From assembly GCA_944359075.1 (NCBI GenBank), contig CALVSR010000002.1, positions 1 through 46,310 of the forward strand: a stretch of 46,310 nt of DNA. The letters run 5' to 3'. The DNA comes from an uncultured Bacilli bacterium. GTDB taxonomy: Bacteria > Bacillota_I > Bacilli_A > RF39 > UBA660. The translations under genes and the position numbers were made by a program. Below, piece after piece: positions 7,745 through 37,010 of this stretch. The first letter of the stretch is position 1; each line of letters opens with the position of its first letter. The notes under the pieces were generated by a model. The model was not told where the DNA came from. It was given only the letters and a program-made list of their open reading frames with translations, and searched no databases.

Positions 7745-7770
7745 AAAATTATTTCCCGGGAAATAATTTT
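7745..7770. promoter_or_regulatory. Noc-binding-site (NBS) palindrome AAAATTATTTCCCGGGAAATAATTTT
   Basis: Core 7750-7765 is TATTTCCCGGGAAATA, an exact match to the B. subtilis NBS consensus (ATTTCCCGGGAAAT). It lies directly 3' of rsmI and touches the stop codon, so it could also act as a weak bidirectional terminator. Confidence 0.65.
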
Positions 7771-12156: not shown

Positions 12157-13812
12157 CTAATTAATAGATATCATATCTTCTCCAAATAAGTCAATTGCTT
12201 GAGAAGTAATAGAATGATCAGATACCTCTTTTTTTTCTTTATGATACTGCCCTAATTCTAAAGGAATATACTGATATGAAATATTATTGTTTTTCTTTGC
12301 AATAAATTCATCTTTTGCAGTAGTCCATTCATCATTAGTCACCAAAGCAACATCATAATGTCTATTATAAATCTTTTCTAATAATTTTTGAACCTTTTCT
12401 AGTAAAGAAAATCCTCTATTAACCATAGAATCATAATCAAAAGAAATAATAACTTCTCCAGTTCCTACAGCTCTAACTATTCCATCTGAAATGTAACAAG
12501 CCGCAGCACCATATTCACTATCTAAAGCATAATCATTTAGTTTATTCCAGTTAGATTCAAAAAATTTTTTTTCTTTCTTATCTGCCCTAGCAAAACAGTT
12601 ATTAATAATTTGCTGATTTATTTGCTTTCTTTCAGAATCAGAAACTACAATCGATGAGGAAATTATTTCCCGGGAAATAATTTTGGAATCTGTTATGTTG
12701 TTTTTGTAATGTTCTAATTGAGAACTATTATCATTAACACTTAATATTTCAGGAGTTACTGAATTTTCTGATTTTTTATGATTCTGATTCATAAAAGATA
12801 ACATATTAATTTCCAAAATTGTTTTAATATCAGAAGCAGACTTAATATTTTTTAATAAATCATTAAAAACATTAGAAAAAGATAATAAAAATTCAATATT
12901 ATAAGAATCTTCATTTTCAATATAAAATTGAATACTCTTATTTTTGCACAATTGAAGCATATCTTGAATAAAAATAGCTAAATCTTTGCCATTATCATAA
13001 ATATTATCTATAAATTGAATTACCTCAGCGACTTGTTCATGATAAACACAATCTAAAAAATATTTCTTTTGCTGTTCTGAGACAATACCATTTACTTTTT
13101 GAAAATCATCCATTGAAATATTAGAATCAGAATAAGCATTTAATTTATCTAACATACCTACAGCATCTCGTAGACCACCATCCGATAATTCTGCAATTTT
13201 TTCTAATACTTCTGGATCTACTTTAATAGATTCTTTTTCACAAATATATTTCAATCTTTTTACAATATCAGAATTACTAATACGGTGAAACTCAAAGCAT
13301 TGACATCTAGAAATAATAGTGTTGGGAACCTTATGAAGATCAGTAGTAGCCAGAATAAAAATAACATGCTCAGGAGGTTCTTCCAAGGTTTTTAAAAGAG
13401 CATTAAATGCACCAATAGACAACATATGCACCTCATCAATAATATATACCTTATATTTTAATTGATTAGGAACTAAATTAATTTTACTCTTAATTTCTCT
13501 AATTTCATCCACTCCATTATTAGAAGCTGCATCAATTTCAATAATATCGGAGCTAAAACCTTGATTAATAGAAATACAATTTTCACATTTTTCACAGGCA
13601 TCTCCATTATCTAGATTAAGACAATTAACTGTCTTAGCCAGCAACTTAGCAATAGATGTTTTTCCAATCCCCCTAGGTCCAGAAAACATATAAGCATGAC
13701 ATACCTTATTTAACTTAATAGCATTTTTCAATATTTTAATAATTACATCTTGGCCAATTACATCTTCTAAAGTAGAAGGTCTATATTTTCTATATAAAGC
13801 TTGATAAGACAT
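12157..13812 (-). CDS. dnaX: DNA polymerase III gamma/tau subunit
   Basis: YRKYRPSTLEDVIGQD, Walker A GPRGIGKTS, Zn module CEKCENC, DEVHML and the SRC motif (ISRCQ). Confidence 0.95.
   Translation of the reverse strand: MSYQALYRKYRPSTLEDVIGQDVIIKILKNAIKLNKVCHAYMFSGPRGIGKTSIAKLLAKTVNCLNLDNGDACEKCENCISINQGFSSDIIEIDAASNNGVDEIREIKSKINLVPNQLKYKVYIIDEVHMLSIGAFNALLKTLEEPPEHVIFILATTDLHKVPNTIISRCQCFEFHRISNSDIVKRLKYICEKESIKVDPEVLEKIAELSDGGLRDAVGMLDKLNAYSDSNISMDDFQKVNGIVSEQQKKYFLDCVYHEQVAEVIQFIDNIYDNGKDLAIFIQDMLQLCKNKSIQFYIENEDSYNIEFLLSFSNVFNDLLKNIKSASDIKTILEINMLSFMNQNHKKSENSVTPEILSVNDNSSQLEHYKNNITDSKIISREIISSSIVVSDSERKQINQQIINNCFARADKKEKKFFESNWNKLNDYALDSEYGAAACYISDGIVRAVGTGEVIISFDYDSMVNRGFSLLEKVQKLLEKIYNRHYDVALVTNDEWTTAKDEFIAKKNNNISYQYIPLELGQYHKEKKEVSDHSITSQAIDLFGEDMISIN
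12660..12683. promoter_or_regulatory. NBS palindrome embedded in-frame in dnaX
   Basis: Core 12664-12679 is TATTTCCCGGGAAATA. It encodes the peptide IISREII in the variable tau linker. Confidence 0.6.
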
Positions 13813-14317: not shown

Positions 14318-14330
14318 ACATAATCACCTT

Positions 14331-14412
14331 AAAAAAGGTGCACATAAATATTAAATGTTAAGGCTGCTATTTTCCAATCCTGACCTGATTCCACCAATAT
14401 TTATTGCACCAT
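14331..14412 (-). ncRNA. ffs: small (4.5S-type) signal recognition particle RNA
   Basis: The minus strand reads GGUGCAAUAAAUAUUGGUGGAAUCAGGUCAGGAUUGGAAAAUAGCAGCCUUAACAUUUAAUAUUUAUGUGCACCUUUUUU. It contains the conserved domain IV (CAGGUCAGG...GGAA tetraloop...AGCAGCC), a 15-bp closing stem with one bulge and a 3' U-tract. It is adjacent to tadA/dnaX, as scr is in Bacillus. Confidence 0.85.
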
Positions 14413-14416
14413 AAAT

Positions 14417-14445
14417 ATAATATTATATTTTTTGCAAAATTTCAA
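14417..14445 (-). promoter_or_regulatory. sigma-A-type promoter of the SRP RNA
   Basis: On the minus strand: TTGAAA (14440-14445), a 17-nt spacer and TATTAT (14417-14422), about 7 nt upstream of the GGUGC 5' end. Confidence 0.55.
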
Positions 14446-14455
14446 TTATTTTCTA

Positions 14456-14471
14456 TGTTTCACGTGAAACA
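14456..14471. promoter_or_regulatory. parS: parS site 1 (ParB loading site)
   Basis: 16/16 match to TGTTTCACGTGAAACA. Lies ~10 bp upstream of the SRP RNA -35 element. Confidence 0.85.
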
Positions 14472-14660
14472 TCGCAAAAAATTTCAAAAACATCTCTATT
14501 GCAATTTAGTTTAACCAACCTATCATCTATAATTAAAATTTAAAAAAATCAGCATTAAAATTTAAAAGAGATATTTTCATCAGTTAATATAATAATGTTA
14601 TAATTGTTAGAATTTTAAATATATATAGAATACATAAAATTATAATAATAGTCATTCATA

Positions 14661-14676
14661 TGTTTCACGTGAAACA
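14661..14676. promoter_or_regulatory. parS: parS site 2
   Basis: 16/16 match. The palindrome extends to 30 nt (14654-14683). Confidence 0.85.
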
Positions 14677-14875
14677 TATGAATTCTTTTTTATAAATAAA
14701 AAAAGCAATCAATTTGTTTAGTTTCTATTCACCAAATAAAATCATTCTATATTAAATTTAATATTTAATAATCACAGCCAATTATATTAATCAAAATAAT
14801 ATAGTTTCCTATAATATAGGATAAAATATATAAATGAGTATCATATTAATCAAACACTATTTTCTATATAATCAA

Positions 14876-14891
14876 TGTTTCACGTGAAACA
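14876..14891. promoter_or_regulatory. parS: parS site 3
   Basis: 16/16 match. First element of a parS-DnaA box-NBS composite. Confidence 0.85.
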
Positions 14892-14892
14892 T

Positions 14893-14901
14893 TGTGGAAA
14901 A
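14893..14901 (-). promoter_or_regulatory. DnaA-box-like 9-mer TGTGGAAAA (reverse complement TTTTCCACA)
   Basis: Identical to the dominant box variant in this window's oriC. Sandwiched between parS 3 and an NBS. Confidence 0.4.
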
Positions 14902-14924
14902 TTATTTCCCGGGAAATAATTTTC
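14897..14924. promoter_or_regulatory. NBS palindrome (28 nt)
   Basis: Core 14903-14918 is TATTTCCCGGGAAATA. Its centre is 27 bp from the centre of parS 3. Confidence 0.7.
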
Positions 14925-15106
14925 ATGCAATTTCTAGAAAGTAAATATTTCTAATCTAATTTCAACACCTATAATCAAAATTTAAATACGACATTATCAA
15001 ATAATCTTTCATAATATTATTAACTCAGTCATATCAAAAATTACAACTTACATAAGTTCAAAATAATGCAAAAAATAAATATAGCATTCAAATAATCATC
15101 ATTTAA

Positions 15107-15122
15107 TGTTTCACGTGAAACA
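15107..15122. promoter_or_regulatory. parS: parS site 4
   Basis: 16/16 match. The palindrome extends over 15103-15126. Confidence 0.85.
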
Positions 15123-15472
15123 TTAATTTTTTTTATTACTACTTAATTTTTAGTAAATAAGTTAACAAAAAATATCACTACTTTTAAAAAAAAACTAATA
15201 ATTAAATAAACATAATAATATAAATAATTAATATAAATATTAAAAATCATTAAAAAATTATTTTAACAACTATAAATATATATTAATCAAAAAAGCTCAA
15301 ATTCATAATTTTAATTATAACATTTCAAATATATTCTAGTAGTAATATTAATAATTATTTATGCTCCCCATTAATAGAATCTTAATCTCATTAAAATTTT
15401 TATTATCAATAGATTTCAGGATAATAAAAATTTAAACTCATCTATCAATAAGCAATTTAGCTATATGCACAA

Positions 15473-15488
15473 TGTTTCACGTGAAACA
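15473..15488. promoter_or_regulatory. parS: parS site 5
   Basis: 16/16 match. First element of the second composite. Confidence 0.85.
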
Positions 15489-15489
15489 C

Positions 15490-15498
15490 TGTGGAAAA
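15490..15498 (-). promoter_or_regulatory. DnaA-box-like TGTGGAAAA
   Basis: Same 9-mer and same position relative to parS and NBS as in the other composites. Confidence 0.4.
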
Positions 15499-15520
15499 TT
15501 ATTTCCCGGGAAATAATTTT
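15495..15520. promoter_or_regulatory. NBS palindrome (26 nt)
   Basis: Core 15500-15515 is TATTTCCCGGGAAATA. Its centre is 27 bp from the centre of parS 5. Confidence 0.7.
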
Positions 15521-15696
15521 TACTCGATTTATAAAAAATAAATATCTCTAATCTAATTTCAACATCTATAATTAAAATTTAAACACGATATTATTGAAGT
15601 AATTTTGTATAATATTATTACCTAATCTTGCTAAAACTATAACCATAAAATTTTTAAAATATTACTAAACATAGATATATAATTATAATCTTTGAA

Positions 15697-15712
15697 TGTT
15701 TCACGTGAAACA
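15697..15712. promoter_or_regulatory. parS: parS site 6
   Basis: 16/16 match. Confidence 0.85.
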
Positions 15713-16101
15713 TTGTATAAAGTTTATTTTATTGATTATTCTAATTTTTGAACAAAAAACTAATACAAATTATTACCATGCTTTTTAATATAATGATAAA
15801 CACAAAAATAGATATAATAATGTAGAACTATTAATGAAAATATTAAAATTAATTTTCTAACAACAATATTTCAGTAACTATAAAATATATTTTAAAGATC
15901 ATAAAAAATAGAATCATAATATTTAAAATTCAGCTACAATACCTCGAAAATTAAAAATATATTCTTAGTAGTCATATTGATAGCTATTTTCTATTTTAAC
16001 CAATAAAATTTCAAATTTTACTAAAATTTTTATCATAAATAGTTCTAAGAATAATTAATAATAAACTCATCTATTAATAAGAATTTTAACTATATATACA
16101 A

Positions 16102-16117
16102 TGTTTCACGTGAAACA
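16102..16117. promoter_or_regulatory. parS: parS site 7
   Basis: 16/16 match. The palindrome extends over 16098-16121. First element of the third composite. Confidence 0.85.
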
Positions 16118-16118
16118 T

Positions 16119-16127
16119 TGTGGAAAA
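16119..16127 (-). promoter_or_regulatory. DnaA-box-like TGTGGAAAA
   Basis: Same 9-mer and same geometry as in the other composites. Confidence 0.4.
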
Positions 16128-16149
16128 TTATTTCCCGGGAAATAATTTT
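16124..16149. promoter_or_regulatory. NBS palindrome (26 nt)
   Basis: Core 16129-16144 is TATTTCCCGGGAAATA. Its centre is 27 bp from the centre of parS 7. Confidence 0.7.
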
Positions 16150-16337
16150 TATTAAATCTCTAGAAAAGTGAACATTTTTAATCCAATTTTAGTAGATTTT
16201 AACATCCATAATTAGAATTTAAATACAATATTATTAATCTAACTTTTTATAATATAATTACCTAATGGTACTAAAACTATAACTATAAAAAATTTAAGAC
16301 ATCACTAAATGTAAATATTCAATAATAATTATTTCAA

Positions 16338-16353
16338 TGTTTCACGTGAAACA
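16338..16353. promoter_or_regulatory. parS: parS site 8
   Basis: 16/16 match. Lies ~50 bp beyond the gyrA stop codon. Confidence 0.85.
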
Positions 16354-16400
16354 TTATTAAAAACTTTTGCAATTTTACTAATAACAAAAAAGAAAACGTA

Positions 16401-19040
16401 TTACTTATCTTCTAATACGTTTTCCTCTACAACAGTTTCAGTTATATCATTTGTATCATCTGAATCATCTTTTAAAATGGTAGAAACAGTAGCTACTTTT
16501 TGGTCATCTTTTAATTTTATTAATCTAACACCTTGAGTAGCTCTACTTAAAGTAGAAATTTGATCCATCGCCATTCTCATGATAATTCCGCTATCTGTAA
16601 TAATAACCAAATCTTCTTCTCCCGTTACAGCCTTCAAAGATACTAACATACCATTCTTTTCTGTCACATTTAACGCTTTCACACCTTTACTTCCTCGGTG
16701 AGTTAAACGATACTCATCAATTGGGGTCTTTTTACCATAACCCTTTTCTGTAACAATCAAAACTTGCTCATTATTTGTAATAACTTCTCCTCCTACTACT
16801 TTAGCACCATTAAGCTCAATTCCTTTAACACCTGAAGCCGTACGACCCATAATACGAATCTCATTTTCTGTAAATCGAACCATTCTACCATTGGAAGCAC
16901 CAATGATAATCTCATTTTCACCAGTTGTCTTACGGACAGAAATTAACTCATCATCATCTTTAAGATTAATAGCGATTTTACCACTACTTCTAATATTATC
17001 AAACTCTGATAAATCCGTTCTCTTCACAATACCATTTTTAGTGATGAAACATAAATATTTGTATTCATGCTCTTTTGCACTTAAAGATACAATAGAATTA
17101 ATTTGCTCGTCTTTTTCCACAGATAATAAATTAATAATTGGCAGTCCTTTGCTTTGTCTGCTAAATTCTGGAATTTCATACCCTTTCATTCGATACACTT
17201 TACCTTTATTACTAAAGAATAATATATAATCATGCGTTTCCATATTTAACATTTTTTCCACAAAATCTTCCTCATTGGTAGCCATACCTTTTATACCAAC
17301 ACCACCACGGTTTTGTGTTCTATATTCGTCCACTAGCATTCTCTTAATATATCCCTTATTAGTTAATGTTATTAATGTATTTTCAACTGGAATTAAAGAC
17401 TCATCTTCAATATAATCAATCGCAGTCATATCAATTTTAGTTCTTCTATCATCACTGTATTTTTTCTTAATTTCTAACATTTCTTCTTTGATAATATCTA
17501 ATACTCTCTGCTCAGAAGCTAAAATTGCCTTATAATCTGTAATTTTAGCAATTAAATCATTCAATTCTGCTTCTACTTTTCCACGTTCTAAGCCTGTTAA
17601 ACGACGTAATCTCATTTCAAGAATACTATTAGCTTGTATTTCATCCAAATTAAATCGTGTCATCAAGTTAGATCTAGCCTCTTCATCACTATCGGCAGCT
17701 CTAATAATACGAACTACTTCATCAATGTTATCTAAAGCAATTCTTAAGCCTTCTAAAATATGAACTCTTTCTTCTGCTTTTCCCAATTCATAACGAGTTC
17801 TTCTAATAATAACCTCTTTTTGATGATCAATATACTTAGAAATAATATCTTTAATTCCTAAAGTTCTAGGAGTTTGACCATCCAAAACTAAGAAAATAAT
17901 ACCATATGAAATTTGAAAATTAGTATGTTTATACAAGTTATTTAACACAACTTGAGGATTAGCATCTTTTTTTAATGTAATAGTAATTTTAATTCCATTT
18001 TTCAAATCTGTATGATAATCAGAAATACCATCAATTACTTTATTATGAACCAGTTCAGCCACTTTGTTTTTTAGTTCCATTGTATTAACACCATAAGGAA
18101 CTTCATCAACAATAATACAACTATGATTTCCATGTTCTTCAATTGTCGCTTTACTTCTAACTGTAATAGATCCCCTACCTGTTTCATAAGCTTTTTTAAT
18201 ACCAGAATTTCCTAAAATAATACCTCCAGTAGGAAAATCAGGCCCTTTTATATATTGCATTAAACCAATAGTATCAATATCTGGATTGTCAATATAAGCA
18301 ATACAACCATCAATTACTTCACCAAGATTATGAGGAGGAATATTAGTAGCCATACCTACAGCAATTCCCATAGATCCATTAACCAATACATTAGGAAATC
18401 TTGAAGGAAGAACCTTCGGCTCTTTTCTAGTAGCATCAAAATTATCATTCATATCCACAGTATCTTTATTAATATCTCTTAATAATTCCAATGAAATTTT
18501 AGCTAGCCTAGACTCCGTATAACGCATTGCTGCGGCACCATCACCTTCAATATTACCAAAGTTTCCATGTCCATCAATCAACATATATCTTTGATTAAAA
18601 TCCTGAGCAAGTCTAACCATCGCTTCATAGATAGAAGAGTCTCCATGAGGATGATAATTACCCATAACTTCTCCGACTGTTTTAGCACTCTTTCTATGAG
18701 GTTTATCAGGAGTATAACCAGATTCATACATAGACCATAAAATACGTCTATGAACAGGCTTTAAACCATCTCTAAGATCTGGTAATGCACGAGAAGTAAT
18801 AACACTTAAAGAATACTCTAAAAAAGAGGTTTCTACTTCATCTACAATATTATTATTATCTAATCTATCTCTTTCATGAAAATATCCATGAAATTCTCCA
18901 TTTTCTACATTATCAATTCCTAATTGAGAATTATTATCATTAACAATTGATTTATCATCTATAGATTCATTTATATTATCCGTATTATCATTTTCATTTG
19001 CTCTATTTAATAATTCATCTAAATCCTCTTTATTATTCAT
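16401..19040 (-). CDS. gyrA: DNA gyrase subunit A
   Basis: SRALPDLRDGLKPVHRRIL, the active-site region AAMRYTE, and C-terminal beta-pinwheel repeats. Follows gyrB. Carries an Asn/Asp-rich N-terminal extension of about 50 aa and an acidic tail. Confidence 0.97.
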   Translation of the reverse strand: MNNKEDLDELLNRANENDNTDNINESIDDKSIVNDNNSQLGIDNVENGEFHGYFHERDRLDNNNIVDEVETSFLEYSLSVITSRALPDLRDGLKPVHRRILWSMYESGYTPDKPHRKSAKTVGEVMGNYHPHGDSSIYEAMVRLAQDFNQRYMLIDGHGNFGNIEGDGAAAMRYTESRLAKISLELLRDINKDTVDMNDNFDATRKEPKVLPSRFPNVLVNGSMGIAVGMATNIPPHNLGEVIDGCIAYIDNPDIDTIGLMQYIKGPDFPTGGIILGNSGIKKAYETGRGSITVRSKATIEEHGNHSCIIVDEVPYGVNTMELKNKVAELVHNKVIDGISDYHTDLKNGIKITITLKKDANPQVVLNNLYKHTNFQISYGIIFLVLDGQTPRTLGIKDIISKYIDHQKEVIIRRTRYELGKAEERVHILEGLRIALDNIDEVVRIIRAADSDEEARSNLMTRFNLDEIQANSILEMRLRRLTGLERGKVEAELNDLIAKITDYKAILASEQRVLDIIKEEMLEIKKKYSDDRRTKIDMTAIDYIEDESLIPVENTLITLTNKGYIKRMLVDEYRTQNRGGVGIKGMATNEEDFVEKMLNMETHDYILFFSNKGKVYRMKGYEIPEFSRQSKGLPIINLLSVEKDEQINSIVSLSAKEHEYKYLCFITKNGIVKRTDLSEFDNIRSSGKIAINLKDDDELISVRKTTGENEIIIGASNGRMVRFTENEIRIMGRTASGVKGIELNGAKVVGGEVITNNEQVLIVTEKGYGKKTPIDEYRLTHRGSKGVKALNVTEKNGMLVSLKAVTGEEDLVIITDSGIIMRMAMDQISTLSRATQGVRLIKLKDDQKVATVSTILKDDSDDTNDITETVVEENVLEDK

Positions 19041-22234: not shown

Positions 22235-22684
22235 TTATTTTTTCATTTTTCGATCATTTAAAATTAAATTTAATCTAGAAGCTCTCATAATTTGATTTTG
22301 GACAGACTGTTTAGAAGCAATGCATTCTATTTCTTTGCCATTTTTTAATAAAATATATGTCTTATGATTTTGCTCATAAACCTTATCTACCCATTTTAAT
22401 GATATCCAAGTACATTGAACATTTTCTGGTGATGAAATAGGAAAAAAAATCAAATCAGAGCTTTCTTCTACAATAATAGGCAACTTATAATTAGCCCCTA
22501 ACATTTTTCTACTCCCATCTACCCTACCTACATAAGAACTTCCAAAATATTTACAAGAATAATCCATTACTTCATAAGCCATATCTTGAACTAAGTATTC
22601 CCGATTCTGTTCTACGATTCTAGTCTGATTTTTATCCAAACCAATGACAGCTAATGTTTCCTCATTTACTTCATATTTTTCCAT
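22235..22684 (-). CDS. comK: ComK-family competence transcription factor
   Basis: The pattern YEVNEETLAVI...YSCKYFGSSYVGRVDGSRKMLGANYKLPIIV...IFFPISSPENVQCTWISL matches the ComK family. Strong GGGGGGAG RBS. Confidence 0.7.
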   Translation of the reverse strand: MEKYEVNEETLAVIGLDKNQTRIVEQNREYLVQDMAYEVMDYSCKYFGSSYVGRVDGSRKMLGANYKLPIIVEESSDLIFFPISSPENVQCTWISLKWVDKVYEQNHKTYILLKNGKEIECIASKQSVQNQIMRASRLNLILNDRKMKK

Positions 22685-24019: not shown

Positions 24020-24157
24020 ATTTATTCCTTCTTTCTTAATATTTATTATTATTATTACTGTGGAAATTGTGCATAACTAAATATTTACTTTATTTTATCA
24101 CAATTTTTCTTATTTTTGGTTGTGGAAAAAAATTTTAAAAATGCAAAATTATCCACA
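24020..24157. promoter_or_regulatory. oriC: oriC, dnaA-dnaN intergenic half (DnaA boxes plus candidate unwinding region)
   Basis: Boxes are TGTGGAAAT (24059-24067), TGTGGAAAA (24121-24129) and a perfect TTATCCACA (24149-24157), plus a weak TTATCACAA (24095-24103). (TTA)5 and an AT-rich tract abut the first box. Confidence 0.75.
24043..24057. repeat. (TTA)5 = (TAA)5 trinucleotide repeat, candidate DnaA-trio array
   Basis: Five perfect trinucleotide repeats 1 nt from the DnaA box at 24059-24067. On the opposite strand it reads ATTTCCACA-G-(TAA)5. Confidence 0.4.
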
Positions 24158-25614: not shown

Positions 25615-25789
25615 TGTGGAAAAATAAATAGATATTTTCCTGTTTTTTTTAATTCACATGAAATCCACAACTTTTTCCACAAGAAAAAACTATATATATA
25701 TTCATTATAACGCATTTTTCCACAAAAAATAAAAAAATAAATTCACAATGAAGAAAAAGTTATAAACAAGTCTGTGGAAATGTGGAAAA
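25615..25789. promoter_or_regulatory. oriC: oriC, dnaA-upstream DnaA-box cluster
   Basis: TGTGGAAAA at 25615, AAATCCACA at 25661, TTTTCCACA at 25673 and 25716, TGTGGAAAT at 25773, TGTGGAAAA at 25781. Weaker boxes at 25650, 25739 and 25760. Confidence 0.8.
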
Positions 25790-31441: not shown

Positions 31442-31469
31442 AAAAATTATTTCCCGGGAAATAATTTTT
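31442..31469. promoter_or_regulatory. NBS palindrome (28 nt)
   Basis: Core 31448-31463 is TATTTCCCGGGAAATA. Lies between the small ORF and mnmG and may also act as a terminator. Confidence 0.65.
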
Positions 31470-35347: not shown

Positions 35348-36136
35348 ATGGGAAAGATCATTTCATTAGTAAATCAAAAAGGTGGAGTAGGAAAAACAAC
35401 AACTAGTATTAATCTTTCTGCATCACTGGCATATTTAGGTAAAAAAGTATTATTAATTGATTTAGATCCTCAAGGAAATACAACAACGGGAGTAGGAATT
35501 AATAAAGGGGATATTACAAACAGTGTCCATGAAGTATTAACAGAAAAATGCAATATCACAGAAGCAATTATTAAAACAAAATATAAAAATCTTTATGTTT
35601 TACCAGCAACTATTAATTTAGCAGGATTAGATATGGAATTAATGGAAAAGAGTAAAACAAATCAAAATTTTATCAAGAATGCACAGTTAAAAACATTTCT
35701 AGATCCTATTAAAGATGTATTTAATTACATTATCATCGATTGTCCTCCATCTTTAGGACTTATTACAACCAATGCTTTAACTGCTTCTGATTCTGTAATT
35801 ATTCCTGTTCAATGTGAATTTTTTGCTTTGGAGGGAATTACGCAATTATTGAATACCATTATGCTAGCTCAAAAGAATTTAAATCCTAATCTAGATATAG
35901 AAGGTGTTTTATTAACAATGTTAGATTCAAGAACTCTTTTAGGATTAGAAGTAGTGGAAGATATTCGTAGATTTTTTAAAGAAAGAGTCTATAATACAAT
36001 TATTCCAAGATTAGTAAAATTAACAGAAGCACCATCTCATGGGAAACCCATATTAGCTTATGACCCAAAACATAGGGCGACAGAAGCATATATAAATTTA
36101 GCAAAGGAAGTGATTGCAAGAAATGGAAACATCTAG
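35348..36136 (+). CDS. soj: chromosome partitioning ATPase ParA/Soj
   Basis: Deviant Walker A NQKGGVGKTTT, followed by DLDPQGN and DCPPSLG. Confidence 0.95.
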   Translation: MGKIISLVNQKGGVGKTTTSINLSASLAYLGKKVLLIDLDPQGNTTTGVGINKGDITNSVHEVLTEKCNITEAIIKTKYKNLYVLPATINLAGLDMELMEKSKTNQNFIKNAQLKTFLDPIKDVFNYIIIDCPPSLGLITTNALTASDSVIIPVQCEFFALEGITQLLNTIMLAQKNLNPNLDIEGVLLTMLDSRTLLGLEVVEDIRRFFKERVYNTIIPRLVKLTEAPSHGKPILAYDPKHRATEAYINLAKEVIARNGNI

Positions 36137-37010
36137 GAGAAAAGCCTTAGGAAGAGGCTTAGAAGAGTTATTTAATAATGAACCAATGGAATATAATAAA
36201 ATTGAGGAGAAAATAATAGAAGAGACCAATAATGAAGAAATTGTAGAACTTCCCTTATCAGAATTAAGAAGTAATCCATATCAACCTCGAAAGAACTTTG
36301 ATGAAAATGCTCTACAAGAATTAGCTACTTCTATTAAAGAACATGGTGTATTCCAACCAATTATTGCCAAAAAAAGTATTAAAGGATATGAAATTATTGC
36401 CGGTGAACGACGTGTAAAAGCTTCTATCTTAGCAGGAAAAGAAACGATTCCAGCTATTATCCGTGATTTTTCTGACCAAGATATGATGGAAATAGCATTA
36501 CTAGAAAATCTACAAAGAGAAAATCTAAATGCCATAGAAGAAGCAATGGCTTATAAAAAATTATTAGATGAATTACATTTAACCCAAGAATCTCTTGCAA
36601 AGAGATTAGGAAAAAGTAGAAGTCATATTACCAATATGTTAGGGTTATTAACTTTACCAGAAGAAGTAAAAGATATGATTATGACTGGCAAACTTTCTAT
36701 GAGTCATGCCCGTGTTTTAAGTAAAATTGAAAATAGTGACCAAATCAAGGAATTGGCTGACAAAATTATTGTAGATGGTTTAAGTGTACGTGAAATAGAG
36801 GAATTATCTCATAATACCAATCTAGAAAAGAAAAATGTTCAAACGAAGCACGATACAAATCGCAATGAATATAAAGTAATAGAAGAAGAATTATCAGAAA
36901 AACTTGGTACCAAAGTTCGTATCAAAAACAACAAAATAGAATTACATTTTGTAAATTCAAGTGATTTGAATAGAATCATAGAAATTATAGGATTAGAAAA
37001 CGAATGTTAG
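36123..37010 (+). CDS. spo0J: chromosome partitioning protein ParB/Spo0J
   Basis: N-terminal ParA-interaction peptide RKALGRGLEELF, NPYQPR, IIAGERRVKAS, and the HTH GKSRSHITNMLGLLTLP (Arg-type). The start is either the ATG at 36123 or the TTG at 36114. Confidence 0.93.
   Translation: METSRRKALGRGLEELFNNEPMEYNKIEEKIIEETNNEEIVELPLSELRSNPYQPRKNFDENALQELATSIKEHGVFQPIIAKKSIKGYEIIAGERRVKASILAGKETIPAIIRDFSDQDMMEIALLENLQRENLNAIEEAMAYKKLLDELHLTQESLAKRLGKSRSHITNMLGLLTLPEEVKDMIMTGKLSMSHARVLSKIENSDQIKELADKIIVDGLSVREIEELSHNTNLEKKNVQTKHDTNRNEYKVIEEELSEKLGTKVRIKNNKIELHFVNSSDLNRIIEIIGLENEC

Follow-up and report, generated by a model that had tools for sequence, protein, structure and literature searches.

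The spacer between ffs and gyrA

The DNA considered here is a stretch of 46,310 nucleotides from an uncultured Bacilli bacterium (GTDB lineage Bacteria; Bacillota_I; Bacilli_A; RF39; UBA660; assembly GCA_944359075.1, contig CALVSR010000002.1, positions 1 to 46,310), which we refer to as the window, and the element in question is a noncoding spacer within it that carries a cluster of parS sites, the loading sites of the partition protein ParB. The window is a replication-origin region with a guanine + cytosine (GC) content of ~27%. Its genes are arranged in the order tadA, ffs, the array of sites, gyrA, gyrB, recF, dnaN, dnaA, and oriC, with mnmG, rsmG, a noc-type gene, soj, and parB located further on, and GC skew changes sign at about 25-26 kb. 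Both the oriC boxes and the skew switch are 9-11 kb away from the spacer. Besides parS, it contains palindromes that match the site bound by Noc, a protein of nucleoid occlusion (Noc-binding site; NBS) and, in three places, a motif that resembles the binding site (box) of the initiator DnaA (Table 1).

Eight perfect copies of the parS 16-mer (TGTTTCACGTGAAACA) are present in the window, where 0.02 would be expected, and all of them are located within 14456-16353; each fits the 16-bp inverted repeat consensus TGTTNCACGTGAAACA perfectly (8/8). The palindrome around parS 2, ATTCATATGTTTCACGTGAAACATATGAAT (14654-14683), is far longer than that at the other parS sites. The perfect NBS 14-mer (ATTTCCCGGGAAAT) occurs six times in the window, and three of the copies (at 14904, 15501, and 16130) lie 12 nt past a parS. 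The initial annotation of this DNA had described three composites in which a parS is followed by TGTGGAAAA and then by a palindrome of 26-28 nt, with 27 bp between the centers of the two palindromes. That description is accurate: exact matches were found at all three places, the palindromes measure 28, 26, and 26 nt, and the center-to-center distance is 27 bp in 3/3 composites (e.g., from 14883.5 to 14910.5). The other five of the eight parS sites have neither an NBS nor a box beside them, which argues against a fixed module.

The three composites were also said to be duplicates of one repeat unit, and this too was borne out. They are paralogues within a tandem unit of ~600 bp, each copy of which also contains a second, lone parS; the corresponding repeat family (D1) is 134 nt in length, with identities of 88% and 67% and spacings of 597 and 629. 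There are three identical 27-bp composites, therefore, because one unit that already contained a parS, a box, and an NBS was duplicated. The composites are identical over 50/51 nt across the three copies, and their flanks have diverged. The 12-nt linker between parS and NBS is invariant at 11 of its 12 positions among the three units, compared to 56% of the other non-site columns (P about 0.01). The best-supported explanation of the identical composites is thus duplication of one unit combined with some constraint on the linker, and not a conserved tripartite module.

Table 1. Features of the window discussed in the text
Feature	Position	Strand	Remarks
Noncoding spacer (proposed centromere)	14416..16400		~20% GC; bounded by ffs/tadA and the gyrA 3' end
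Tandem ~600-bp units in spacer	14864-15460, 15461-16089, 16090-16400 (partial)		An older segment with two parS lies ahead of them
parS 1	14456..14471		Perfect 16-mer; upstream of ffs, ~40 bp from its 5' end
parS 2	14661..14676		Perfect 16-mer; mid-point of a 30-nt perfect palindrome
parS 3 (composite 1)	14876..14891		Perfect 16-mer
DnaA-box-like TTTTCCACA (composite 1)	14893..14901	-	Begins 1 nt past parS; overlaps extended NBS palindrome
NBS 1	14897..14924		28-nt palindrome GAAAATTATTTCCCGGGAAATAATTTTC; 14-mer core 14904-14917
parS 4 (lone)	15107..15122		Perfect 16-mer
parS 5 (composite 2)	15473..15488		Perfect 16-mer
DnaA-box-like TTTTCCACA (composite 2)	15490..15498	-	Exact match
NBS 2	15495..15520		26-nt palindrome; core 15501-15514
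parS 6 (lone)	15697..15712		Perfect 16-mer
parS 7 (composite 3)	16102..16117		Perfect 16-mer
DnaA-box-like TTTTCCACA (composite 3)	16119..16127	-	Exact match
NBS 3	16124..16149		26-nt palindrome; core 16130-16143
parS 8 (lone)	16338..16353		Perfect 16-mer; ~50 bp from the gyrA stop
Scattered NBS, intergenic	7751..7764		Same extended flank; orthologous site in L081
Scattered NBS within dnaX	12665..12678		Orthologous site in L080 and L113
Scattered NBS upstream of mnmG	31449..31462		Same extended flank
Signal recognition particle RNA (ffs)	14329..14415	-	Rfam; spacer boundary
gyrA	16401..19040	-	Spacer boundary
dnaA	24158..25555	-	oriC boxes TTTTCCACA x4 at 25615-25789; a further three at 24068-24157
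Noc-type ParB paralogue, 348 aa	34210..35256	+	rsmG-noc-soj-spo0J position; long disordered linker; conserved C-terminal domain
ParA/Soj ATPase	35348..36136	+	Beside parB
ParB/Spo0J	36114..37010	+	N-terminal LGRGL peptide; residues R, M, T, S

A gene or RNA hidden in the spacer was ruled out by three scans: the spacer has no open reading frame of 37 aa or longer, Rfam gave ffs alone (14329-14415), and promoter-like sites occur at the level of chance (30, vs. 27.2 expected); the apparent terminators are the parS palindrome itself. At the ffs end, the minus strand has a promoter-like TTGAAA-17-TATTAT (14445-14417) next to parS 1, and a parS is also located directly before ffs in three related loci (L080, L081, and L113). 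ParB loading at parS 1 might alter ffs transcription, or the reverse.

parS and NBS sites in related genomes

To place the array in a wider context, species-representative genomes were scanned for a parS followed, after 0-30 nt, by TTTCCCGGGAAA, which gave at least 120 loci. Among the matches listed, nearly all of the composite-bearing loci come from uncultured gut metagenome-assembled genomes that are labeled Bacilli, Tenericutes, Mycoplasma, Erysipelotrichaceae, or "Clostridium sp. CAG:710/417/1000", and NCBI taxonomy assigns the named relatives to "Bacilli incertae sedis" only. By tblastn, the neighborhood of the window's proteins is common to 119/120 of the composite-bearing loci listed, with gyrA found in 102 (58-93% identity), tadA in 95, and dnaX in 89. 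As judged from these alignments, the composite is in or beside the same gyrA/tadA/dnaX region across a deep clade of at least 120 species of low-GC, uncultured gut Bacilli. The gyrA-tadA spacer of 80 loci in which both flanking genes are present (mean length about 0.8 kb) contains 325 parS and 167 NBS, compared to 45 and 67, respectively, in ~600 kb outside it.

A second sample was chosen independently of the composite, by scanning metagenomes with aligned GyrA C-terminal domains (GyrA-CTD). This gave 80 loci at 59-75% identity, which were deduplicated to 40 lineages with a complete gyrA-tadA spacer. A parS was found in 31 of the 40, an NBS in 24, and both in 20. NBS occur at 1.69/kb within the spacer, and the corresponding densities elsewhere in these loci are 0.30/kb (other noncoding DNA) and 0.06/kb (coding DNA), an enrichment of ~5.6-fold over other noncoding DNA that depends on a crude coding mask and on a spacer density inflated by tandem duplicates. 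From a density of 0.30/kb and a ~0.8-kb spacer, one would roughly expect about 8 NBS-bearing lineages, rather than 24. On these counts, the co-residence of NBS and parS in the spacer is non-random. Thus, of the conservation in relatives that the initial annotation had made a test of its composite, sharing of parS and NBS by the same spacer was found, but a fixed 27-bp spacing was not, and the box is present in about 12% of the linkers.

The spacing between the two sites is highly variable. Across species the parS-NBS gap ranges from 1 to >60 nt (the composite scan itself spans 0-30 nt). One close relative, L080 (GyrA 87% identical), has the identical composite with a gap of 13, and another, L033 (GyrA 89%), has a gap of 12 with a box; in L081 and L113 (GyrA about 85%) the gaps are 8 and 12, and a box is absent. 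A conserved 27-bp geometry is rejected in view of this distribution, and the claim of a fixed geometry is unsupported. Nor is juxtaposition as such supported: in the composite-independent sample, an NBS lies within 45 bp of a parS in 8/20 lineages that have both sites, compared to 10.3 ± 1.9 when the NBS are placed at random in the spacer (p = 0.94), so that adjacency beyond chance is not supported and close pairs can be explained by crowding in a short spacer.

When gaps from about 200 loci (L001-L200) were pooled, with one observation per locus and gap, peaks were seen at about 11-13, 22, 34-35, and 43-44 nt, with dips at 16, 27, and 37-38 nt; gaps of >30 nt are unevenly ascertained in this pool, and its statistics ignore kinship. 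The periodogram has its maximum at 11-12 nt (p < 0.001 vs. a smoothed null), and it holds after clustering at 75% GyrA-CTD identity. The window's own gap of 13 (14892-14904) falls on the first peak. A-tracts in parS flanks that have no NBS are also periodic, at 9-10.5 nt, and phasing by proteins is therefore inseparable from intrinsic curvature of the DNA. We tentatively suggest a helical-phase preference in close parS-NBS gaps, for which curvature is an alternative to protein phasing.

How much of this could arise without any functional connection between the sites? Genomes of this kind are compact, and the spacer might simply be their largest non-transcribed stretch near oriC, where long palindromes bound by any DNA-binding protein of the origin region gather and are subsequently copied together by tandem duplication, with ParB, the Noc-type protein, and DnaA each acting independently. 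Such passive co-residence would account for the absence of an excess of close pairs in the random-placement test, for the variable spacing, for the many lineages with parS arrays but without NBS, for the fact that the window's three composites are duplicates, and for the NBS found in other intergenic DNA and inside dnaX. It does not readily account for the excess of NBS in the spacer relative to the remaining noncoding DNA of these loci, for their presence in 24/40 lineages, for boxes at preferred offsets of 0-6 nt from parS at about 13 times background (see below), or for the ~11-nt periodicity of the parS-NBS gaps. On balance, we regard this explanation as somewhat unlikely. As for the scattered copies, NBS are kept at orthologous positions (7751, and 12665 in dnaX) in L080, L113, and L081, which implies that individual sites are likely to be under selection.

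The relatives also show how far such arrays can be elaborated, with up to 11 parS sites per array. In several lineages a unit with one parS and one NBS has been amplified, and strictly alternating parS/NBS arrays of 6-10 copies were observed with a period of 61 bp in L167 (6046-6600, 9-10 copies), 64 bp in L010 (3560-4050), 75 bp in L063 (7098-7750), and 82 bp in L007 (968-1510). Several of the NBS copies in L167 share one C-to-T change (TTTCCTGGGAAA). A second recurrent motif, TAGGTAGAAGTA, TAGGGTAAA, or TAGATAGAAGTA, is found past parS in the linkers of L167, L063, L010, and L045, and is unrelated to the DnaA box.

The Noc-type paralogue and the DnaA-box-like motif

Specificity for parS or NBS is set by four residues, which are R/T/A/G in ParB and Q/K/K/R in Noc (Jalal 2020, PMC7383237). 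The ParB encoded in the window, whose segment GKSRSHITNMLGLLTLP...MSHAR reads R, M, T, S at these positions, has an R that corresponds to Caulobacter R173 and is thus parS-type. The paralogue encoded upstream of soj has Q131, K137, S142, and R159, which matches three of Noc's four residues and differs at the third (S). The Q-K-S-R combination is unchanged in 23 homologues (63-84% identity), and QK[STA]R is found in 64/64 cluster representatives with a readable motif. The NCBIfam Noc model, TIGR04285, scores the paralogue at 291.3 bits (under the cut-off of 315) vs. 237 for ParB, and the GERR CTP (cytidine triphosphate) motif is present. Because of the Q-K-S-R residues, and a Noc-model score above that of ParB, we expect the paralogue to bind the CCCGGG palindrome; the identification of that palindrome as an NBS-type site is thereby upheld, as a prediction from sequence.

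The paralogue begins with MDKEVVELYLDDIIPNRFQPR, and a stop codon is located two codons upstream of its ATG. Its alignment starts at residue 27-28 of full-length Noc structures and at residue 3 of 7ng0, which we take to be an N-delta-26 Noc construct. It has no N-terminal amphipathic membrane-targeting helix, and in this respect resembles a natural N-delta-26. The same N-terminal start is seen in 23/23 homologues, and among the ~150 cluster representatives most similar to the paralogue (clusters at 50% identity), 144 have a PNRFQPR that starts no later than about residue 21. The Noc-type family is very large, with >150 clusters at 50% identity, and its members range from 335 to 800 aa, with long, variable disordered linkers and a conserved C-terminal domain of ~55 aa. 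In Noc, the N-terminal amphipathic helix is reported to be highly conserved, needed for function (Adams 2015, PMC4331003), and regulated by CTP. Lacking it, the paralogue is without an element that defines how Noc is known to work and is, as far as its sequence can tell, a Noc-type DNA binder; the suggestion that Noc tethers the centromere to the membrane accordingly finds no support. A role in organizing the centromere or origin domain is likelier than classical nucleoid occlusion.

The DnaA-box-like motif is associated with parS rather than with NBS. As reported in the initial annotation, the window's variant occurs five times in its own oriC/dnaA region and twice in gyrA; with the three copies in the array, TTTTCCACA is present 10 times in the window, compared to 0.61 expected, so that the array and the genome's own oriC/dnaA boxes use the same variant. 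Across relatives, TTWTNCACA occurs in the linkers of 14 loci, vs. 0.29 expected from shuffled linkers, with mirrored flanks giving 4 and 2. The linker variants fit the relaxed DnaA consensus, and the perfect TTATCCACA is found in L013, L017, L068, and L099. Box starts cluster either 0-1 nt past parS (TGTGNAWAA) or 3-6 nt past it (TTWTNCACA). In total, a box adjoins 69/1424 distinct parS flanks, in about 41 loci, where about 5 would be expected, and box density is 1.0-1.3/kb in the spacer vs. 0.3/kb elsewhere. Several arrays repeat the motif: in L080, TGTGGAA follows 7/9 parS sites, only one of which has an NBS beside it, and in L013, L004, L015, and L047 three or four parS each have a box.

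A box is found in 51/1171 flanks without an NBS and 18/253 flanks with one (p = 0.07). It therefore goes with parS whether or not an NBS follows, and its role as an element of the parS-NBS linker is rejected. Of the proposed DnaA site at the centromere, then, the association of box with parS stands and the tie to NBS does not. We conclude that the DnaA-box-like motif is recurrent and real in a minority of species, where it represents a putative DnaA site. Two published observations bear on this. In Caulobacter, boxes located in the parS region are bound by DnaA (Mera 2014, as reported in PMC6399470), and Staphylococcus aureus Noc restrains DnaA-dependent initiation (PMC5540599). An isolated case of a box beside an NBS is the dnaX site of L080 (position 1602 of the reverse complement), which has no parS nearby and is preceded by TTGTGGATTAATTA, a near-DnaA box (TAATCCACA).

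It could be argued that TGTGGAAAA is not a DnaA site at all, but either an artefact of the junction between two abutting palindromes or an asymmetric extended flank recognized by ParB or another protein. Outward from parS, the clade conserves T, T/A, and G/A, and the extended flank AAATTA...TAATTT is present at 6/6 perfect NBS in the window, including those at 7751, 12665, and 31449 outside the array. The sites' own extended flanks thus provide 9/12 linker bases (parS ...ACA-TTG and NBS AAAATT-ATTTCCC), leaving only TGG free, and since two extended palindromes supply these nine bases, the window's 9-mer is in large part a junction product. In the window and in L080, moreover, it is found without exception on the same side of parS. 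Yet in L080 it occurs past parS sites without any NBS, other lineages show both orientations, several offsets, and variants that fit TTWTNCACA (including the perfect one), and the window's variant matches the genome's own oriC boxes. Hence, we consider this alternative unlikely.

Very improbable, and largely refuted by the comparative data, is the idea of an obligate tripartite module of fixed geometry (a parS, a box, and an NBS set at 27 bp), with competition or cooperation of ParB, DnaA, and Noc at every composite and Noc tethering the centromere to the membrane: the near-identity of the three copies amid diverged flanks, the same composite in L080 and L033, and the position of the window's gap on the first periodicity peak are in its favor, but the gaps vary from 1 to >60 nt, the L081 and L113 pairs have no box, a box is equally common beside parS sites that have no NBS, most of the window's parS sites stand alone, and the Noc-type protein has no membrane helix.

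One further open reading frame, of 149 aa, is located between recF and dnaN (22235-22684); it had no NCBIfam match at E <= 1e-20 and is kept in relatives at 32-60% identity.

A proposed centromere and its relation to known systems

Taking these observations together, we think that the spacer is probably an origin-proximal chromosomal centromere that contains ParB sites and serves also as a preferred loading zone for a Noc-type clamp that has no membrane helix, with DnaA-box-like motifs abutting parS in some lineages, including this one. The eight-parS ParB-loading array would have grown by tandem duplication of a ~600-bp unit, in which one of the two parS sites has an adjoining NBS for the syntenic Noc-type paralogue and a box at the junction. 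ParB-CTP and Noc-type CTP clamps would both load here and spread across a shared stretch of a few kilobases, which would make the centromere a nucleoprotein domain of mixed ParB and Noc composition instead of a complex assembled site by site. Where a box is present, DnaA bound 0-6 bp from parS may be sterically coupled to ParB nucleation, and could link initiator status to centromere loading. The Noc paralogue would be likelier to organize the centromere or origin domain than to act in membrane-tethered nucleoid occlusion.

Several points weigh against this proposal. Co-spreading of the two clamps, and steric coupling of DnaA to ParB, are steps that we only infer, in organisms that are uncultured. 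The enrichment of NBS carries the reservations about masking and duplicates given above. In about 40% of the lineages sampled, the spacer contains no NBS, so NBS are not obligatory there; likewise, only ~5% of parS flanks carry a box, and so the box is not obligatory either. Close parS-NBS adjacency is no greater than random placement in the spacer would give, which leaves coupling at the level of single sites unproven. Finally, in the window itself the 9-mer is largely produced by the two extended palindromes.

A more ambitious version, which we consider doubtful, would make the Noc paralogue of this clade a second centromere clamp and not a nucleoid-occlusion factor that tethers DNA to the membrane, with NBS interleaved with parS in helical phase, a two-clamp complex with ParB, and DnaA boxes that couple initiation to segregation. 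An arrangement of this kind could preserve the state that followed duplication of parB to noc and preceded membrane binding and the dispersal of sites.

Among CTP-switch DNA clamps, ParB and Noc have been studied most, and they are usually viewed as acting on separate sets of sites. The clade described here differs in having Noc-type sites concentrated in the ParB centromere and a Noc paralogue without a membrane helix. In the searchable literature, whose coverage is incomplete and which therefore provides weak evidence, we found no description of a parS/NBS juxtaposition or of a partition system from this clade, in agreement with the initial annotation, which was aware of no such description. 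If our proposal is correct, the clade offers a natural system in which to ask what a Noc-type clamp does without membrane binding, whether two paralogous clamps share or partition DNA, and how NBS specificity arose from parS. The recurrent box beside parS would also bring to the Firmicutes a connection of initiator to centromere that has until now been described for Caulobacter, and the motif may bear on the way in which Noc controls initiation in S. aureus, for which there is no explanation as yet.

Among the closest known systems is chromosomal ParABS, as exemplified by Spo0J/parS of Bacillus subtilis, with which the window shares perfect 16-bp parS sites in an origin-proximal position, nearby soj-spo0J genes, a parS-type R in ParB, and an N-terminal ParA-interacting peptide. 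The parS sites of B. subtilis are dispersed, whereas the window has eight in one 2-kb noncoding spacer, and relatives have tandem arrays with periods of 61-82 bp; the window's spacer also differs in having predicted sites for two other proteins. Iterated plasmid centromeres consist of short-period tandem arrays of sites for a partition protein, and the arrays of L167 (61 bp), L010 (64 bp), and L063 (75 bp) are similar in form, but are chromosomal and alternate the sites of two paralogous clamps.

The resemblance to the Noc/NBS nucleoid occlusion system (Wu 2009; Adams 2015, PMC4331003; Jalal 2020, PMC7383237; Jalal 2021, PMC8429893) of B. subtilis and S. aureus lies in the same 14/16-bp palindrome, the rsmG-noc-soj-spo0J position of the gene, the Q, K, and R residues, the GERR CTP motif, and the additional NBS scattered in the origin region. 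Unlike canonical Noc, the paralogue starts at the equivalent of about residue 26-28 and has no membrane helix, has S for K at the third specificity position, contains a long disordered linker, and scores under the NCBIfam cut-off, and its NBS are concentrated in the parS spacer. Lastly, the centromere of Caulobacter crescentus, as far as it is described in PMC6399470 (citing Mera, Kalogeraki and Shapiro 2014), is similar in having initiator boxes in or next to the ParB-binding region, an arrangement suggestive of crosstalk of initiation with segregation. Caulobacter belongs to a different phylum, and compared to that account, the putative boxes found here are placed 0-6 nt from parS, are repeated with parS, and are restricted to a minority of lineages.

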